From the IMG/VR virus record IMGVR_UViG_2698536471_000014: a stretch of 4,127 nucleotides of DNA. The stretch is one strand, 5' to 3'. Within the stretch, counting starts at the first letter, position 1; the number at the start of each line of letters is the position of its first letter. The notes below the pieces were generated by a model. It saw only the letters and a program-made list of their open reading frames with translations, made no database searches and was not told the origin of the DNA. Below, one piece after another: positions 126 to 4,127 of this stretch. The position numbers and the translations under genes were made by a program. This stretch comes from a virus (Duplodnaviria > Heunggongvirae > Uroviricota > Caudoviricetes).

Positions 126-947
126 CTGGCGGATGATCCTGCCGTTCGGGCCGTGTTCCGCAATGAGGCAGTGATCCGTCGTGCTGGTGGCGTGGAATGT
201 CTTGAAAGCTGGTTACTTCGTGAAAAAGGCTGCCAGTGGCCTCATTCCGACTGGCACAGCGAGAACATGACAACAATGCGACACGCTCCGGGCGCAATCC
301 GTCTGTGCTGGCACTGCGATAACCAGCTGCGCGATCAGTTCACGGAACGGCTGGAATCAATGGCAACGGATAACTGTGCCCGCTGGGTGTTGTCTGTTGT
401 GCGTCGGGATCTCGGTTTTGATGACAGTCATGTTGTGACAATGCCGGAACTGTGCTGGTGGCTGATTCGTAATGATCTGGCGGATGCCTTACCGGAAAGT
501 GCAGCCCGTAAGGCACTGAGATTACCGAAGCCTGTTGTGCCGTCTGTTACCCGGGAAAGTGACCTTGTGCCTTCGGTTCCTGCCACCAGCATCATCCAGG
601 ATAAGGCGAAAAAGGTGCTGGCGCTGAAAGTGGATCCGGAGTCGCCGGAGTCTTTTATGTTACGCCCAAAACGTCACCGCTGGGTTAATGAAAAGTACAC
701 GCGCTGGGTTAAGACGCAGCCGTGCGCATGTTGTGGAAAACCTGCTGATGATCCCCACCACCTGATAGGCCACGGTCAGGGGGGAATGGGTACAAAAGCG
801 CATGACCTTTTTGTGTTGCCTTTGTGCAGAAAGCATCACGACGAGCTGCATGCGGATACCGTGGCATTTGAAGAGAAGTATGGCTCCCAGCTGGAGCTGA
901 TATTTCGTTTTATCGATCGTGCGCTGGCAATAGGCGTACTGGCGTAA
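126..947 (+). pseudogene. DUF968 / YdfU-like prophage protein, 5'-truncated by the IS insertion (native part 126-947; probable pseudogene or N-terminally deleted product)
   Basis: The tool ORF 96-947 has no in-frame stop upstream to position 1, so the frame runs straight through the IS terminus at 125; the tool 'start' at 96 is a TTG inside the IS inverted repeat. First ATG in the native part is at 267 with only a weak SD. C-terminus carries a Cys/His cluster (CACCGKPADDPHH...CRKHHDELH). Stop TAA at 945-947. DUF968/YdfU naming is by recollection and synteny (immediately upstream of Q). Confidence 0.6.
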
Positions 948-960
948 GTGGAGAACGAGC

Positions 961-1713
961 ATGAACCTTGAAGCCTTACCAAAATATTACTCCCCAAAAT
1001 CTCCAAAATTGAGTGATGACGCACCGGCGACAGGCTCTGGTGGTTTAACGATTACGGATGTGATGGCTGCGCAGGGGATGGTGCAGTCGAAAGCACCGCT
1101 TGGGTTTGCCTTATTCCTGGCAAAAGTTGGTGTTCAGGATCCTCAGTTTGCGATTGAAGGTCTGCTCAATTACGCGATGGCACTGGATAACCCGACATTG
1201 AATAAATTGAGTGAAGAAACCCGGCTACAGATTATTCCTTACCTTGTGAATTTTGCCTTTGCTGATTATTCCAGGTCTGCGGCAAGTAAGGCTCGTTGTG
1301 AGCATTGTGCTGGTACTGGATTTCATAATGTATTGCGCGAAGTGGTGAAACACTCCAGAAGCGGGGAATCTGTTATCAAAGAAGAGTGGGTGAAGGAACT
1401 ATGTCAGCATTGCCATGGTAAGGGAGAAGTCAGCACAGCGTGCAGAGGGTGTAAGGGTAAAGGTATTGTCTTGGATGAAAAAAGGACCCGGCTTTATGGC
1501 ACACCTGTTTATAAGATTTGTGGGCGTTGCAATGGAAAACGGTTTAGTCGTTTACCAACCACACTGGCGCGGCATCATGTCCAGAAGCTGGTACCGGACC
1601 TGAGTGATTATCAGTGGTATAAAGGATATGCAAATGTCATTGATAAACTGGTTACAAAGTGCTGGCAGGAGGAATCTTACGCTGAAGCACAATTGAGAAA
1701 GGTGACGAGATAA
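961..1713 (+). CDS. quuQ: Late-gene antiterminator Q (lambda-Q family, QuuQ-like), 250 aa
   Basis: GGAGAA SD 5-6 nt upstream of ATG 961. Protein shows blocks recalled from lambda Q (SPKSP...SD...TDVMAA, FA(F/Y)ADY(S/C)RSA, CGRC, Q/KC..EES) and four CxxCxG motifs (CEHCAGTG, CQHCHGKG, CRGCKGKG, CGRCNGKR). Lies directly upstream of a PR'-like promoter. Stop TAA at 1711-1713. Confidence 0.85.
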   Translation: MNLEALPKYYSPKSPKLSDDAPATGSGGLTITDVMAAQGMVQSKAPLGFALFLAKVGVQDPQFAIEGLLNYAMALDNPTLNKLSEETRLQIIPYLVNFAFADYSRSAASKARCEHCAGTGFHNVLREVVKHSRSGESVIKEEWVKELCQHCHGKGEVSTACRGCKGKGIVLDEKRTRLYGTPVYKICGRCNGKRFSRLPTTLARHHVQKLVPDLSDYQWYKGYANVIDKLVTKCWQEESYAEAQLRKVTR

Positions 1714-1744
1714 GTGATTTTCGCCGAAGATGGCGACGTGATGC

Positions 1745-1785
1745 TTGCATTTTTCAAAAAATATGGATAAAATTTTTTCAACGAT
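1745..1785 (+). promoter_or_regulatory. PR'-like sigma70 late promoter with promoter-proximal pause element (Q engagement / qut region)
   Basis: -35 TTGCAT (1745-1750), 17-nt spacer, -10 TAAAAT (1768-1773), then tttttcAACGATGGG (AACGAT at 1780-1785). This parallels the lambda PR' arrangement as I recall it (TAAATT-tgactc-AACGATGGG), where AACGAT is the -10-like sigma-dependent pause signal. Confidence 0.6.
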
Positions 1786-1819
1786 GGGCTTTGTATACCC
1801 GAAGTTAAGAAAAAGTAGA

Positions 1820-1843
1820 AAACCCGCTGATGAGCGGGTTTTT
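1820..1843 (+). terminator. Rho-independent terminator, tR'-like, ending a short PR' leader transcript
   Basis: Stem AAACCCGCT (1820-1828) / AGCGGGTTT (1833-1841) with loop GATG, followed by a T-run to 1843. About 60 nt downstream of the predicted start site. Confidence 0.7.
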
Positions 1844-2135
1844 GTGCTTTAAATAGGGTAATAGAGATGTTGAATCTCATTACGGGATTCATGTTAGTTT
1901 ACTTATTATTTATCGGGTGACTTTGTTTTTTGCCTGATGTTTAAAATGCTTTCTTCCAGTACAATGTCCATAGATACAATGAGTCTGCTTATTATATTAT
2001 TAGCAGAGCTATTAAGGTCAAAGTACAGCATAAGCTTTTAAAGCCAATCAACCAGTCATCAAGACAGACGGGTTTATTCATGAAAACTCTCCATGTTTGA
2101 TTCGATGGGGCTTGAAGTTAAAGCTTTAATATAGC

Positions 2136-2348
2136 TCATGAAAGGTAAACATTGGCAGCTGATGGTCCACGCAGACCATTTATCCGGCAAAATTCCACGC
2201 GTAATCCGGTGGTAATTTCTTCTGCATCGCGGAGATTGAGCGCTGAAACATGAAGCTGGACATCGATACGACCATCGGATGGGGTTATAAGACCTTTGCC
2301 GCTTTTGCCGTCAAAGGTTTTGAGAATTCCTGTCATTTTACGGGACAA
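2136..2348 (-). CDS. cspF: Cold-shock-domain protein, CspF/CspH-like (70 aa)
   Basis: Translation [27 protein letters not shown]...[13 protein letters not shown] has CspA-family length and architecture. Start is TTG (complement of 2346-2348) with AAGGA SD 6 nt upstream on the minus strand; the in-frame ATG four codons in is 18 nt from the SD. Lacks the aromatic RNP1 residues seen in CspA/CspB, as expected for CspF/CspH. Confidence 0.85.
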
Positions 2349-2453
2349 AAAAATTCCTTAATACTGATAACTTGGCGCACTATACACACGTTCCTGAAGA
2401 AAGCTATAGTTTTTTGATGGGGTTGAAGATGGCTGGATGTCTAAAATAAACAT

Positions 2454-2648
2454 TGCTTCATATGTTCAACTATGCGTTAATGATTGCGTCGGTTTGAAGA
2501 ACAGACGATATACGAAGTAGTTTACTAAAGCAGTTCTCATTTCAGGTGTTATTCACTTATTCCTTCTTTGAGTCTCTCCAATTAAGTACGAAGTCGTTTC
2601 TGTTATACAAGCCATTTATGCCGAAAGGCTCAAGTTAAGGAATGTAGA
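2454..2648 (+). promoter_or_regulatory. cspB promoter and long cold-shock 5'UTR (cold-box-like and upstream-box-like elements)
   Basis: -35 TTGCTT (2454-2459), 16-nt spacer, -10 GTTAAT (2476-2481), then CGGTTTGAAGAACAGAC, which parallels the cspA promoter and cold box as I recall them (CTTAAT...ACGGTTTGACGTACAGAC). GCCGAAAGGC about 30 nt before the start codon matches the cspA UTR motif. Leader of about 160 nt. Confidence 0.5.
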
Positions 2649-2864
2649 ATGTCAAATAAAATGACTGGTTTAGTAAAATGGTTTAACGCTGATAAAGGTT
2701 TTGGCTTTATTTCTCCTGTTGATGGTAGTAAAGATGTGTTTGTGCATTTTTCTGCGATTCAGAATGATAATTATCGAACCTTATTTGAAGGTCAAAAGGT
2801 TACCTTCTCTGTAGAGAGTGGTGCTAAAGGTCCTGCAGCAGCAAATGTCATAATTACTGATTAA
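2649..2864 (+). CDS. cspB: Major cold-shock protein CspB-like (71 aa)
   Basis: [53 protein letters not shown]...GPAAANV: canonical CspA-family sequence with RNP1 KGFGFI and RNP2 VFVHF. AAGGA SD 7 nt upstream of ATG 2649. Stop TAA at 2862-2864. Confidence 0.9.
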
Positions 2865-2975
2865 AATTCATAGTTTGTCTGTATACGATAACGAAGAAGG
2901 CTGATGCCTGAGTGGAGATACAGACAGAGTGGTGAATATTGGATCTCTTTAATAAAGAGTAAGGAGGTCCAATAC

Positions 2976-3011
2976 ATGAAACAATGGCCAGCATATTTGG
3001 CAATAACTTAA
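2976..3011 (+). CDS. 11-codon mini-ORF (MKQWPAYLAIT) behind a consensus Shine-Dalgarno; candidate small protein or leader peptide
   Basis: AAGGAGGT (2961-2968), the ideal anti-SD complement, lies 7 nt upstream of ATG 2976; stop TAA at 3009-3011. Support is the translation signal only, with no homology evidence. Confidence 0.2.
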   Translation: MKQWPAYLAIT

Positions 3012-3146
3012 TCAGGAAAAGTATGCTAACCATTGTGGTGAAGTGCAGGTTTGCTGCATGAATAGTTTTACAGCAGAAGCTAACTGCTGGCATAGCAAAA
3101 CAAAGTGCGTAAGTGGATGACTCCCACAAAAAGTACCACAATATTA

Positions 3147-3168
3147 AACCCGCTCAGGCGGGTTTTTT
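3147..3168 (+). terminator. Rho-independent terminator, potentially bidirectional, between the cspB unit and the minus-strand small ORF
   Basis: Stem AACCCGC (3147-3153) / GCGGGTT (3158-3164) with loop TCAG, followed by TTTTTT on the plus strand. On the minus strand the same hairpin is followed by TTTAATATT, a weaker U-tract. Confidence 0.7.
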
Positions 3169-3227
3169 ATTATCTGCTTTAAATATGTTATTAAAATATA
3201 AAAAATACTTGTTACGAATAAAATCAA

Positions 3228-3398
3228 TCAAGCTACAGCTTTAAGATTTGTCTGGAATACTTTGTTGCAATGAGGGCAGATCAAAAGGGCACCTTTTTGT
3301 ACTCTTGAAAAACTGTGTTCTGACTCTTGGGTGCAGTTTGGGCAGGAACATTTAACGAGATAATTACGGCGTGATTTTGAGTCTTTACGTTCTGACAT
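3228..3398 (-). CDS. Small Cys4 zinc-ribbon protein, 56 aa (alternative upstream ATG at 3449 would give the 73-aa tool ORF)
   Basis: MSERKDSKSRRNYLVKCSCPNCTQESEHSFSRVQKGALLICPHCNKVFQTNLKAVA has two CxxC pairs about 20 residues apart. The internal ATG (complement of 3396-3398) has an AGGAAAA SD about 7 nt upstream; the ATG at 3449 has no evident SD. It may correspond to a prophage-encoded small zinc-binding protein of the YnfU type, but that name is from uncertain recollection. Confidence 0.55.
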   Translation of the reverse strand: MSERKDSKSRRNYLVKCSCPNCTQESEHSFSRVQKGALLICPHCNKVFQTNLKAVA

Positions 3399-3616
3399 AG
3401 GCTTTTCCTGTATAAATGGCCGTATACAGTACACTAAATATGAAAACATATCTCGTATTATTATTTAATATATGATTTTCTTTTAAAATAATTACCCACA
3501 TTTTTAATGTGTCTGTTTTTTAGCGCCGTTGAGAACAACGTTTGCTATAAAAACTACCCCATAGACTCCGATCTTTTCAAACATATTGCACCATCTGTGT
3601 ACATCGGGGTGAGGAT

Positions 3617-3832
3617 ATGAAATCAATGGATAAGTTAACAACAGGTATCGCCTATGGCACATCGGCTGGTAATGCTGGTTTCTGGGCATTGCAGTTACTC
3701 GATAAAGTAACTCCGTCACAGTGGGCTGCAATCGGTGTGCTGGGTAGTCTGGTATTTGGCTTGCTGACGTACCTGACAAACCTTTATTTCAAGATTAAAG
3801 AAGACAAGCGTAAGGTTGCACGGGGAGAGTAA
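3617..3832 (+). CDS. essQ: Phage-21-type class II holin / pinholin (S21-like), dual-start antiholin and holin
   Basis: [71 protein letters not shown]: two hydrophobic segments and a basic C-terminus, closely resembling S21/EssD as recalled. GGGGTGAGGA SD upstream of ATG 3617; second in-frame ATG at 3626 (M1-K-S-M4 dual-start motif). Stop TAA at 3830-3832. Confidence 0.9.
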
Positions 3833-3836
3833 TTCA

Positions 3837-4102
3837 ATGACACAAAACTATGAACTGATTGTGAAAGGGATCCGCAATTTTGAGAATAAAGTTGCGGTAA
3901 CTGTAGCATTAAGGGACAAAAAACGCTTTGACGGTGAAATTTTTGACCTGGACATCTCGCTGGACCGTGTTGAAGGTGCCGCGCTGGAGTTTTATGAGGC
4001 AGCAGCCAGAAGGAGCATCAGACAGGTCTTCCTGGAAGTTGCAGCCGGGTTATGTGAAGGGGATGAGCAGTCGCCGGAAAAGCGCCCCGTAATTTTAGAG
4101 GC
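3837..4102 (+). pseudogene. Hypothetical prophage protein (YdfR-like by synteny), 3'-truncated by IS insertion at 4102/4103
   Basis: ATG 3837 lies 4 nt after the holin stop, with GGGGAGAG SD (translational coupling). Frame is open through 4102 and continues without a stop into the IS inverted repeat to the window end, so the native C-terminus is replaced. Not lysozyme-like. The YdfR assignment rests on position after the holin in Qin-like prophages, not on a verified alignment. Confidence 0.5.
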
Positions 4103-4127
4103 TGAACCGCCCCGGGTTTCCTGGAGA
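4103..4127 (-). mobile_element. Terminus (IRR-type inverted repeat) of a second IS3-family (IS629-like) element; body continues rightward beyond the window
   Basis: Plus strand 4103-4127 TGAACCGCCCCGGGTTTCCTGGAGA is a 21/25 match to the inverted repeat at 101-125 and matches my recollection of the IS629 right inverted repeat. Orientation (transposase on the minus strand further right) is inferred from the IRL/IRR variant, not observed. Confidence 0.7.

Follow-up and report, generated by a model that had tools for sequence, protein, structure and literature searches.

The stx genes of Stx phages occupy the Q-to-S interval of lambdoid phages. Morons of this interval form low-GC blocks with their own promoters and terminators, placed between the antiterminator with tR' and the holin; the lysogen expresses them, and lysis does not depend on them. 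The ynfU cassette analyzed here is like them in position and base composition and would resemble them in the other respects. It is unlike them in that its cargo consists of host-type stress genes (csp, ynfU and ynfS), that ynfU opposes late transcription, and that many genera also have the ynfU/cspB/cspF unit in non-phage settings. In the related phage Tritos, cspB, cspI and ynfN were listed as expressed morons (PMC9928086).

A second comparison is provided by the small proteins YmcF and YnfR (Pfam PF23641), which like YnfU are approximately 60 residues long, carry four cysteines in two pairs (CPCC...CIFC in YmcF/YnfR) and are encoded beside csp genes in Qin-type prophages and chromosomal csp islands, often divergently from ynfU. 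Their genes usually lie downstream of csp on the same strand, whereas ynfU would have its own promoter. No homology between the two was found; they share no detectable sequence similarity and belong to different Pfam families: BLASTP gave no alignment of YnfU with YmcF/YnfR at E values up to 100, and YnfU had no PF23641 match. YnfR of the YmcF family is cold-induced (PMC6001520), and long-term stationary phase raises the expression of cspB, cspF, cspI and ynfN (PMC7406224). YnfU itself was discovered by Ribo-RET and confirmed by SPA-tagging of the chromosomal gene in cells grown in LB at 37 C, the level of YnfU-SPA being the highest among the newly found small proteins (bioRxiv 10.1101/511675), and was detected independently by PIRT-Seq (PMC12350097).

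The window examined here is a 4,127-nucleotide stretch of DNA from the virus record IMGVR_UViG_2698536471_000014. The initial annotation had described in it a minus-strand ORF for a 56-residue Cys4 protein with a basic N-terminus and a Shine-Dalgarno sequence. These properties were confirmed from the sequence, and the family match and substitution pattern given below establish the ORF as a real gene. Its status as an unassigned gene did not hold, since the ORF is ynfU, which is already known: the gene is named, annotated and experimentally detected, and has its own curated families. The predicted protein, MSERKDSKSRRNYLVKCSCPNCTQESEHSFSRVQKGALLICPHCNKVFQTNLKAVA, matched Pfam PF23499 over its full length (E = 2.5e-31; 107.7 bits, cutoff 27; profile 1-49/49) and also NCBIfam NF038384 (79.8 bits, cutoff 36; profile 1-51/52). 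It is identical to K-12 b4776 at 55 of 56 residues, the sole change being D6 in the window and N6 in K-12, and of 5426 complete E. coli genomes, 1661 have an annotated ynfU. Taken jointly, and with mechanism excluded, we put the identification as ynfU, the gene structure and the reading as part of a prophage cargo cassette at a probability of roughly 85%.

The ynfU coding sequence (3228..3398, minus strand) opens with the ATG at 3398-3396 and runs for 56 codons to a TAG stop (3230-3228); the Shine-Dalgarno sequence AGGA (3406..3409, minus strand) lies 7 nt 5' of the ATG. The longest mechanical ORF is larger, 73 aa over 3228-3449, starting at the ATG at 3449-3447, and this is the interval listed in the initial annotation. 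Several observations favor the shorter product as the genuine one. RefSeq annotates exactly this 56-aa ynfU (locus L001 6129-6299; K-12 b4776), and the upstream ATG is missing in other genera and falls within the spacer of a conserved putative promoter block. The in-frame 5' extension (3399..3449, minus strand) is thus probably untranslated.

Selection was assessed on 74 distinct ynfU coding sequences and 80 species loci. A separate scan of viral contigs was unusable for divergence analysis, as all 80 loci kept encode an identical YnfU. Judged from these alignments, ynfU is under strong purifying selection, with a median dN/dS of 0.116 and a diversity at codon positions 1/2/3 of 0.28/0.15/0.51 in the 74 distinct sequences. 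The frame is open in 78 of the 80 species loci, and each of the other five frames contains stops in at least 71 of the 74 sequences. The cysteines and the reading frame, which the initial annotation had proposed to check for conservation and dN/dS, are therefore both kept. Translation, its other proposed check, is documented for the K-12 YnfU by the Ribo-RET and SPA tag data; these refer to an orthologue 98% identical to the window allele.

YnfU is predicted to adopt a zinc-ribbon topology, in agreement with the earlier description, on the basis of Pfam, NCBIfam and an AF2 model (pLDDT 74, core 80-85) in which two knuckles are carried on beta-hairpins. The cysteine motifs are C17-x-C19-P-N-C22 and C41-P-H-C44. 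Residues C19, P20, C22, C41, P42 and C44 are invariant in all 74 distinct sequences, which upholds the two cysteine pairs C19/C22 and C41/C44; C17 did not stand as a conserved ligand, being lost in distant members of the family, so that the predicted site, binding one zinc, is C19/C22/C41/C44 without C17. Also invariant in 74/74 is the stretch S26-E27-H28-S29-F30, a polar patch that extends to -x-R32. YnfU thus has what the family requires, two CPxC knuckles and a SEHSF-R-QKG block in a protein of approximately 55 residues. The protein has 10 K/R versus 4 D/E, with a basic N-terminal tail rich in lysine and arginine.

The layout of the window agrees with the setting first described, an AT-rich gap between the cspB terminator and the holin. 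The direction of late transcription is set by a Q-type antiterminator (ydfT/quuQ; 961..1713, plus strand; Pfam Antiterm, E = 7.8e-53), followed approximately 105 nt further on by a terminator-like hairpin (1819..1842) that from its position would be tR' and at which the cargo block begins on its upstream side. Within the block are ynfS (1992..2081, minus strand), encoding a small protein (PF23697 YnfS, E = 3.9e-20, and the K-12 annotation), a cspF-like cold-shock domain gene (2136..2348, minus strand; Pfam CSD and synteny) that is the third member of the ynfU/cspB/cspF unit, and cspB (2649..2864, plus strand; Pfam CSD, E = 1.1e-31), the conserved partner of ynfU and convergent with it. The Rfam cspA thermoregulator model matched at cspB (2488-2927, 156.7 bits). 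On the other side, the class II holin gene essQ (3617..3832, plus strand; Pfam Phage_holin_2_1, E = 1.1e-33, and annotation), the first late lysis gene, is divergent from ynfU. The minus-strand ynfU accordingly lies opposite to Q, cspB and the holin, and its orientation against late transcription is as originally reported. GC content is 31-40% over 1700-3600 and 44-58% in the flanks. The gene therefore sits, between Q with its tR'-like hairpin and the holin, in a prophage interval between functional modules that has a deviant base composition, and ynfS-cspF-cspB-ynfU can be read as a low-GC cargo cassette. In K-12 the Qin locus has the same neighbors (essQ, cspB, cspF, ynfS, ydfT and ydfU), identically ordered and oriented. 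The prophage segment in the source of the window is bracketed by IS1203-type ends.

In the interval where cspB and ynfU converge, a terminator scan of the plus strand found a GC-rich hairpin with flanking A-run and T-run (3146..3165). The minus-strand RNA also folds at this position (-20.7 kcal/mol, z = -2.16), and the hairpin probably terminates transcription in both directions, serving cspB and ynfU alike.

Upstream of ynfU, an alignment of 76 distinct upstream regions revealed a conserved block of approximately 70 nt (3399..3465, minus strand), which reads AATAATACGAGATAT-N13-GTGTACTGT-N..-CCATTTATACAGGA in the window and includes a putative -10 hexamer, TACTGT (3431-3426, minus strand). 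The consensus across genera is RGCWAT-N13-GTGTAWGGT-N5-GTCCaTTAAATCAGGA-N7-ATG, and CAGGA before the ATG is kept in nearly all of the 76 sequences. The motif also occurs in Hafnia, in Cronobacter, in a Citrobacter paralogue and in a Klebsiella phage, and is retained in non-phage contexts. We infer that the block comprises the ynfU promoter and leader. Within 10-kb flanks the motif was found essentially only upstream of ynfU; since it is absent before the neighboring genes in these flanks, it provides no evidence for a regulon shared by ynfU and its neighbors. Two further readings of the leader were rejected. By our reading the repeat CTGTATA-N8-TATACAG is not a LexA box, having the spacing CTG-N16-CAG rather than CTG-N10-CAG, and an RNA thermometer or structured leader was discarded as the region folds no better than shuffled sequences (z = -0.43, +0.37 and +1.47). 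The repeat itself is specific to Escherichia.

The YnfU family is confined to Enterobacterales, and ynfU is mostly chromosomal rather than phage-borne; outside Escherichia/Shigella and a few phages its loci are non-prophage. In 57 of the 80 species loci ynfU has a csp gene at a distance of no more than 600 bp, in several arrangements. The chance expectation, by our own estimate from nine csp genes per approximately 4.6-Mb genome, is about 0.3%; the count of 57 overstates the number of independent events because the 80 loci share ancestry. The ynfU/cspB layout of the window was found in 39 of the 80, and in 23 there is no csp gene within 1 kb. YnfN-like genes (29/80) and YmcF-like genes (22/80) are also found near ynfU, mostly divergent and just upstream. 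Linkage of ynfU to csp persists in distant members from Hafnia and Edwardsiella and is seen also in phage PHB10. Two loci (L158 and L161) have a second YnfU-like paralogue 3' of cspF, and a widespread paralogue in Citrobacter is flanked by mgtS and dcp and lacks a csp neighbor. The conserved partners of ynfU are thus csp, ymcF-like and ynfN-like genes, while adjacency to a holin is limited to a few phages. In most genera the chromosomal gene belongs to a small csp island, with a cspB-like gene convergent to it and a cspF-like gene beyond, and with ymcF-like and ynfN-like genes often placed divergently.

Among 50,697 phage records, only 8 carry ynfU. Two independent phages keep the gene beside the holin, one of them, a Klebsiella phage, without csp and with ynfU again divergent from the holin; a phage-specific role therefore keeps some plausibility. 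No tRNA array is present between Q and ynfU in phage HannyBb, where the many tiny CDS represent an over-annotated cspF-cspB region. In K-12, where the Qin prophage is cryptic, ynfU is expressed without prophage induction. These data bear on the proposal of the initial annotation that ynfU is a moron. The cargo slot between Q/tR' and the holin, the low GC content and the expression in K-12 without induction all agree with it; holin adjacency as a conserved feature does not. In Qin-type lambdoid phages the ynfU/cspB/cspF unit and ynfS are carried as low-GC cargo between Q/tR' and the holin, with ynfU probably expressed from its own signals and no need for prophage induction.

Database comparisons recovered the YnfU family and beyond it only generic zinc ribbons below threshold (Pfam, NCBIfam, PHROGs and PADLOC); no match in the sequence and fold comparisons assigns a specific function to YnfU. 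These comparisons speak neither for nor against the modulation of host or phage gene expression raised in the initial annotation. PHROGs contained no family above noise, and no PADLOC anti-phage defence model matched at E <= 0.01. An HMM search of 1.84 billion representatives for domain fusions returned 42 matches, none of them informative because the long ones were read-through or mis-called ORFs (P0051 and P0058) or repetitive Cys-rich proteins. The generic ribbons that resemble YnfU, including the N-terminal ribbon of PhnA/YjdM, ribosomal protein L44e/eL42 and other ribosome-bound ribbons, and Tim15/Zim17, have, as the YnfU model does, two CPxC/CxxC knuckles on beta-hairpins. Local resemblances are CPKCKTHTEHSVSLYKGG in L44e and CKKC..S.H..S...KG..LISCPHC in Tim15. 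For the PhnA/YjdM ribbon (PF08274) the score was 22.4 bits against a cutoff of 30.8, and PA0128 (PDB 2akl), whose likeness to YnfU was already remarked by Weaver et al. (bioRxiv 10.1101/511675), gave E = 1.3 by profile and E = 1.0 by Foldseek.

The conserved neighborhood suggests a function, which we advance tentatively. As a small basic zinc-ribbon protein, YnfU would bind RNA or the ribosome and would join the Csp RNA chaperones in a cold-shock, stationary-phase or growth-transition response; for the phage, ynfU would be host-benefit cargo outside the lysis programme. In a fuller and equally tentative form, YnfU may be an unrecognised component of the cold-shock or growth-transition response that binds structured RNA or the ribosome together with CspB/CspF-type paralogues and YmcF-like and YnfN-like proteins, the genes forming a mobile csp island that lambdoid phages may have captured repeatedly as cargo of benefit to the lysogen. 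YnfU is not strictly cold-specific, since ordinary LB cultures at 37 C contain it, and our literature search found no published ynfU expression data under cold shock, nor an experiment or dataset showing stress induction of ynfU or binding of RNA, the ribosome or zinc by YnfU.

A somewhat more doubtful proposal is that YnfU, like many small proteins of bacteria, binds protein instead of nucleic acid: its zinc ribbon would dock on a larger partner, for which a chaperone, RNA polymerase, an RNase and Csp itself come into question, and tune the activity of that partner. In the view of Weaver et al., binding to larger proteins is how most small proteins are likely to work (bioRxiv 10.1101/511675), and the invariant patch S26-E27-H28-S29-F30-x-R32 could form a protein interface; on the other hand, the neighbors of ynfU are csp, ymcF and ynfN, and no gene for a chaperone or other partner is conserved beside it. 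In a specific version, YnfU would resemble the DNL-type ribbon of Tim15/Zim17, an escort protein of Hsp70, and act on DnaK. A PDB profile search does align both knuckles and the strand between them (CxxC...S.H..S...KG..LI.CPHC, E = 0.033), and there is a weak Pfam zf-DNL match (PF05180, E = 0.076), yet these fall below the family thresholds (for zf-DNL, 13.4 bits where 27 would be needed). The motif that gives the DNL family its name is missing after the second knuckle, where the residues following C44 are NKVFQTNLKAVA with no H-L-I-x-D-N-L. The similarity to Tim15 is also unspecific, because L44e and other ribosome-bound ribbons give equally good marginal matches.

It is improbable that the main role of the gene lies in its transcription, with the ynfU promoter directed against the late operon and the shared hairpin insulating the holin and lysis genes from read-through out of the strong cspB promoter or a leaky pR' in the lysogen. 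The geometry would suit such a role, as ynfU is read towards cspB and against Q-dependent late transcription and is placed immediately 5' of the holin, a terminator hairpin separates it from cspB, and the divergent-from-holin position recurs in the csp-less Klebsiella phage. However, it is the protein sequence that is under strong purifying selection (the dN/dS given above), YnfU accumulates to readily detectable levels, and most family members are chromosomal and non-phage with no lysis genes to insulate. Interference would be at most a secondary effect, acquired in phages.

The database name of YnfU, 'putative zinc-binding protein', could be taken to mean that it handles metal, for example by buffering or sensing zinc, which we consider very unlikely. 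Its Cys4 site does not vary, but a single structural site of this kind is the normal fold determinant of a 56-residue ribbon and gives no sign of trafficking, and no metal-homeostasis genes are among the conserved neighbors. A preprint groups ynfU with sufABCDS as up in hypomagnetic and lag-phase-like conditions and labels it an iron-metabolism gene, a label that the data shown there do not support; the intergenic ynfU/cspB polymorphism in a silver-nanoparticle-adapted line lies outside the genes and was at a frequency of 0.28 in one population. Finally, a chance open frame has a negligible probability. The ORF is short and lies in AT-rich intergenic DNA, and E. coli annotations did not include it before 2019, but this reading is refuted by the matches to both curated families, by the conserved frame with stops in all others and the low dN/dS, and by published detection with Ribo-RET, SPA tag and PIRT-Seq.

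The ORF is a rediscovered annotated gene, so that the overall picture is unchanged and the value of the analysis is comparative context. What the sequence comparisons add are estimates of the strength of selection, the predicted ligand set, the range of the family, the linkage to csp genes and a candidate promoter/leader block that extends across genera. Among the orphan small proteins of E. coli, YnfU is one of the better expressed, and the comparative data lead to the testable hypothesis that ynfU belongs with the stress genes csp, ymcF and ynfN and not with phage lysis. They also define targets, namely the C19/C22/C41/C44 site, the S26-E27-H28-S29-F30-x-R32 patch and the RGCWAT-N13-GTGTAWGGT block. 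For Qin-type phages, the locus illustrates the Q-to-holin slot as a carrier of a host-derived stress cassette.

The ORF in question is ynfU. Read mechanically, the longest minus-strand ORF comprises 73 codons from an ATG at 3449 to a TAG stop at 3230-3228, the interval reported in the initial annotation (3228-3449). A 56-codon form (3228-3398) starts at an ATG at 3398, with AGGA at 3409-3406 and a spacer of 7 nt. Because the in-frame ATG at 3449 is not conserved and falls inside the spacer of a conserved, putative promoter block, the sequence argues for a product of 56 residues, MSERKDSKSRRNYLVKCSCPNCTQESEHSFSRVQKGALLICPHCNKVFQTNLKAVA. The protein contains C17-x-C19-P-x-C22 and C41-P-x-C44 and has 10 K/R against 4 D/E residues. 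The initial description of a small Cys4 ORF with a basic N-terminus and a Shine-Dalgarno sequence, on the minus strand of an AT-rich gap and opposite to late transcription, was borne out: ynfU is antisense to Q (the antiterminator gene), cspB and the lysis genes.

On each criterion that could be tested, the ORF belongs to the YnfU family. The whole Pfam profile PF23499 'YnfU' was matched (E = 2.5e-31, 107.7 bits, cutoff 27), as was NCBIfam NF038384 'YnfU family zinc-binding protein' (79.8 bits, cutoff 36). The 551 bases around the gene are present in 1661 of 5426 complete E. coli genomes, where it is annotated 'ynfU: putative zinc-binding protein YnfU', and the sole difference from K-12 b4776 is D6N. 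Gene, motif and translation are all on record already. Ribosome profiling on stalled initiation complexes first revealed YnfU in K-12, and SPA-tagging at the chromosomal locus confirmed it in LB cultures at 37 C, at a level above that of every other small protein new to that study (Weaver et al., bioRxiv 10.1101/511675); PIRT-Seq gave independent detection (PMC12350097). None of the published papers we found naming ynfU assigns it a function, in line with the earlier view that none could be assigned from sequence.

Selection on the protein was assessed with one locus per species, drawn from a genome collection based on GTDB; 86 relatives were gathered and 80 loci retained. The reading frame is intact in 78 of the 80, and among 74 distinct sequences the median dN/dS (Nei-Gojobori) is 0.116, or 0.099 in pairs with dS < 1. 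Diversity at codon positions 1, 2 and 3 is 0.28, 0.15 and 0.51, and each of the other five frames contains stops in at least 71 of the 74 sequences. Invariant residues are K5, N12, L14, C19, P20, C22, S26, E27, H28, S29, R32, K35, G36, L39, C41, P42 and C44. C17 is kept in 72 of 74 sequences and replaced in remoter members of the family, so the predicted metal ligands are C19, C22, C41 and C44. In an AlphaFold2 model built from a 54-sequence alignment (pLDDT 74, core 80-85), strands flank both knuckles and the modelled topology is that of a zinc ribbon. Searches of solved structures by fold and by sequence yielded nothing beyond generic zinc ribbons, none with a significant score (best Foldseek E 0.62); the best PDB profile matches were L44e (E = 0.03), Tim15 (E = 0.033) and PA0128 (E = 1.3). 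The top Foldseek match, also non-significant, was the zinc domain of the ATCase regulatory chain. Membership in the YmcF-like, DNL, PhnA/YjdM and L44e families was rejected in profile or sequence tests, and YnfU belongs to none of the PADLOC defence families. Taken together, the data show ynfU to be a gene under selective constraint, translated in K-12, with putative expression signals of its own and a Cys4 product predicted to fold as a zinc ribbon.

The family has a very restricted range. Across 1.84 billion representatives, 42 proteins in all reached E <= 1e-3, none with an informative domain fusion. The approximately 100 named clusters are all from Enterobacterales (Escherichia, Citrobacter, Klebsiella, Raoultella, Enterobacter, Kosakonia, Kluyvera, Yokenella, Cronobacter, Hafnia, Edwardsiella and Erwinia), and for the few loci labelled Veillonella, Vagococcus, Kocuria or Bacillota the simplest explanation is contamination by enterobacterial contigs. 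Some homologues carry misleading names, such as 'Permease, cytosine/purine...', 'aspartate carbamoyltransferase regulatory subunit' and 'transcription elongation factor Elf1'. Protein clusters P0002, P0007 and P0009 and loci L083, L105, L119 and L121 exemplify these doubtful names and taxon labels. In phages the gene is rare (8 of 50,697 records), and no PHROG family covers it.

Pfam scans and the RefSeq annotation of identical DNA identify the 4127-bp window as the Q-to-lysis segment of a Qin-type lambdoid prophage of E. coli, with gene order and orientation identical to those of the K-12 cryptic prophage Qin. On the plus strand lie the truncated DUF968 gene ydfU (96-947), the Q antiterminator gene ydfT/quuQ (961-1713), cspB (2649-2864), the class II holin gene essQ (3617-3832) and the start of ydfR (3837 onward); on the minus strand lie ynfS (1992-2081, 29 codons; Pfam PF23697, E = 3.9e-20), cspF (2136-2348) and ynfU. 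A terminator-like hairpin that could act on either strand is found at 1819-1842. GC content is 31-40% at approximately 1700-3600, versus 44-58% in the phage genes on either side. ynfS, cspF, cspB and ynfU form a low-GC cargo cassette in the prophage, between Q with its expected terminator tR' and the holin, and we infer that the phage carries it as host-type stress cargo. The earlier suggestion of a moron is reasonable given this position.

Several other features of the window were recorded. The cspB 5'UTR and coding region (2488-2927, plus strand) match the full-length Rfam cspA thermoregulator model (RF01766, 156.7 bits, gathering score 78). In the 280-nt interval from the cspB stop to the terminator at 3146-3165 are a second terminator-like hairpin (3043-3059) and a candidate mini-ORF of 11 codons (MKQWPAYLAIT; 2960-3011, plus strand), with its ATG 7 nt after a near-perfect Shine-Dalgarno sequence, TAAGGAGGT. 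ynfS, a known small-protein gene, is merely 'hypothetical protein' in the identical RefSeq record. Besides its Antiterm domain, Q has four CxxCxGxG-type repeats (CEHCAGTG, CQHCHGKG, CRGCKGKG and CGRCNGKR) that give a sub-threshold match to the DnaJ central cysteine-rich domain (31.5 bits vs 32.7). Matches to Qin-type prophages in complete genomes are limited to 126-4102, while 1-125 and 4103-4127 are termini of IS3-family IS1203-type elements in inverted orientation (25-nt arms 101-125/4103-4127, 84% complementary; bases 1-70 encode the start of transposase orfA on the minus strand). The 3977-bp segment ydfU'-quuQ-ynfS-cspF-cspB-ynfU-essQ-ydfR', in which ydfU and ydfR are both truncated, is therefore bracketed by two IS copies in the source strain, in a composite-transposon-like arrangement.

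The main new point of comparison is the genomic context of ynfU. The tie to the holin and late operon drawn in the initial annotation stands for Escherichia/Shigella prophages and a handful of sequenced phages (Tritos, 2H10, HannyBb, PhiR63_1, PhiR42_1) and for one Klebsiella phage whose copy is 57% identical; elsewhere it fails, and what recurs is a csp (cold-shock-domain) gene, within 600 bp of ynfU in 57 of the 80 species loci and absent nearby in 23. With nine csp paralogues per 4.6-Mb genome by our estimate, approximately 0.3% of random sites would have one that close. Sharing descent, the 80 loci do not count as independent; even so, the linkage persists through a number of distinct arrangements: a cspB-like gene lies convergent just downstream in 39 loci, a cspF-like gene downstream on the ynfU strand in 36, and a csp gene upstream in 13. 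It extends to the most distant members (ynfU-DUF2058-csp in Hafnia, csp on both sides in Edwardsiella). YnfN-like and YmcF-like genes occur in 29 and 22 of the 80 loci, usually divergent and directly upstream. Outside the holin settings ynfU lies in ordinary chromosomal regions: its neighbors are metabolic and PTS genes in Klebsiella, genes for GST and tautomerase in Enterobacter, and genes for dehydrogenase and LysR proteins in Raoultella, and in Kluyvera it occupies the interval from the thrS-infC-rpmI-rplT-pheST cluster to yniD-ydiY-pfkB. In phage PHB10 the unit ynfN-like/ynfU/csp/cspF is near the integrase, away from the lysis genes. The ynfU/cspB/cspF unit exists outside phages in many genera. 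A widespread Citrobacter paralogue, located between mgtS and dcp and lacking a csp neighbor, is a further exception to the linkage.

Individual loci were also informative. In Kluyvera (loci L166/L167, 6403-8204), ynfN-like and ymcF-like genes on the minus strand, ynfU, and two csp genes (convergent, then divergent) form a compact chromosomal 'cold-shock island' with no phage or mobility genes seen nearby. In Kosakonia oryzendophytica and Citrobacter amalonaticus, a second, far more divergent YnfU-like zinc-ribbon ORF (...CPVCGLRSSQSLSRVRRKQTMLCPGCKALF...) lies just 3' of the cspF-like gene (L158 6296-6511, L161 6440-6631), so some csp islands hold two family members. The record of phage HannyBb (L172, 4000-6900) lists approximately 20 tiny 'hypothetical protein' CDS (90-170 nt) between Q and ynfU with no cspB or cspF labels; this DNA is 94% identical to the window, encodes cspB and cspF, and contains no tRNA genes.

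Conservation between genera extends over approximately 70 nt upstream of the ynfU ATG, also where a different gene lies beyond, with the consensus AATAAAnnCGAGCTAT-N13-CGTGTATGGT-N5-GTCCaTTAAATCAGGA-N7-ATG. Hafnia, Cronobacter, the Citrobacter paralogue and the Klebsiella phage share the motif, which across 1.56 Mb of flanking sequence is practically confined to the position before ynfU. TATGGT (TACTGT in the window, 3431-3426) is a putative -10 element with a poor -35, which may point to an activator or alternative sigma factor. A generic sigma-70 scan found nothing above chance here (3 sites vs 3.0 expected), and no significant structure was found in the leader. Downstream, a GC-rich hairpin (3146-3165) with A-tracts and T-tracts on either side can be predicted to terminate both the cspB and ynfU transcripts. 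An Escherichia-specific inverted repeat, CTGTATA-N8-TATACAG (3411-3432, minus strand), spans the leader and touches the Shine-Dalgarno sequence. The repeat resembles a pair of LexA half-sites but has the wrong spacing (CTG-N16-CAG), and as a predicted RNA hairpin it does not exceed shuffled sequence in stability (z = -0.43).

The neighbors of ynfU have published links to stress. YnfR, of the YmcF family, is strongly cold-induced in E. coli (PMC6001520); it is also a small Cys4 protein but unrelated in sequence to YnfU. cspB, cspF, cspI and ynfN are up in long-term stationary phase (PMC7406224), and cspB, cspI and ynfN are given as expressed morons of the related phage Tritos (PMC9928086). In a RefSeq E. 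coli locus (L001, 11489-11677), a YmcF-family 'cold shock small protein' 3' of cspI, Cys4 (CPCC...CIFC) and unrelated to YnfU, bears the symbol ynfQ. The symbol seems to have been misassigned: in K-12, ynfQ denotes another protein, of 37 residues, and it is YnfR that is cold-induced and encoded next to csp (PMC6001520).

On this basis, YnfU may act in a response, linked to Csp proteins, to cold, stationary phase or growth transitions. The basic tail and predicted ribbon of the protein suggest that it could bind RNA or the ribosome, a mechanism to which we assign a probability of about 0.3. Somewhat less likely is a protein-binding modulator, for which the resemblance to Tim15/DNL proteins falls short of the threshold and the DNL motif itself is lacking. 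That the antisense gene serves primarily as a transcription-interference or insulator element in the phage is improbable and is contradicted by protein-level constraint in non-phage contexts. Metal handling is more improbable still, and a chance ORF is refuted.

For function, the csp genes deserve the emphasis that had been placed on the holin and late operon. The orphan gene ynfU can be approached experimentally through its csp linkage, through the invariant SEHSF-R-QKG patch and through the conserved, putative promoter block.
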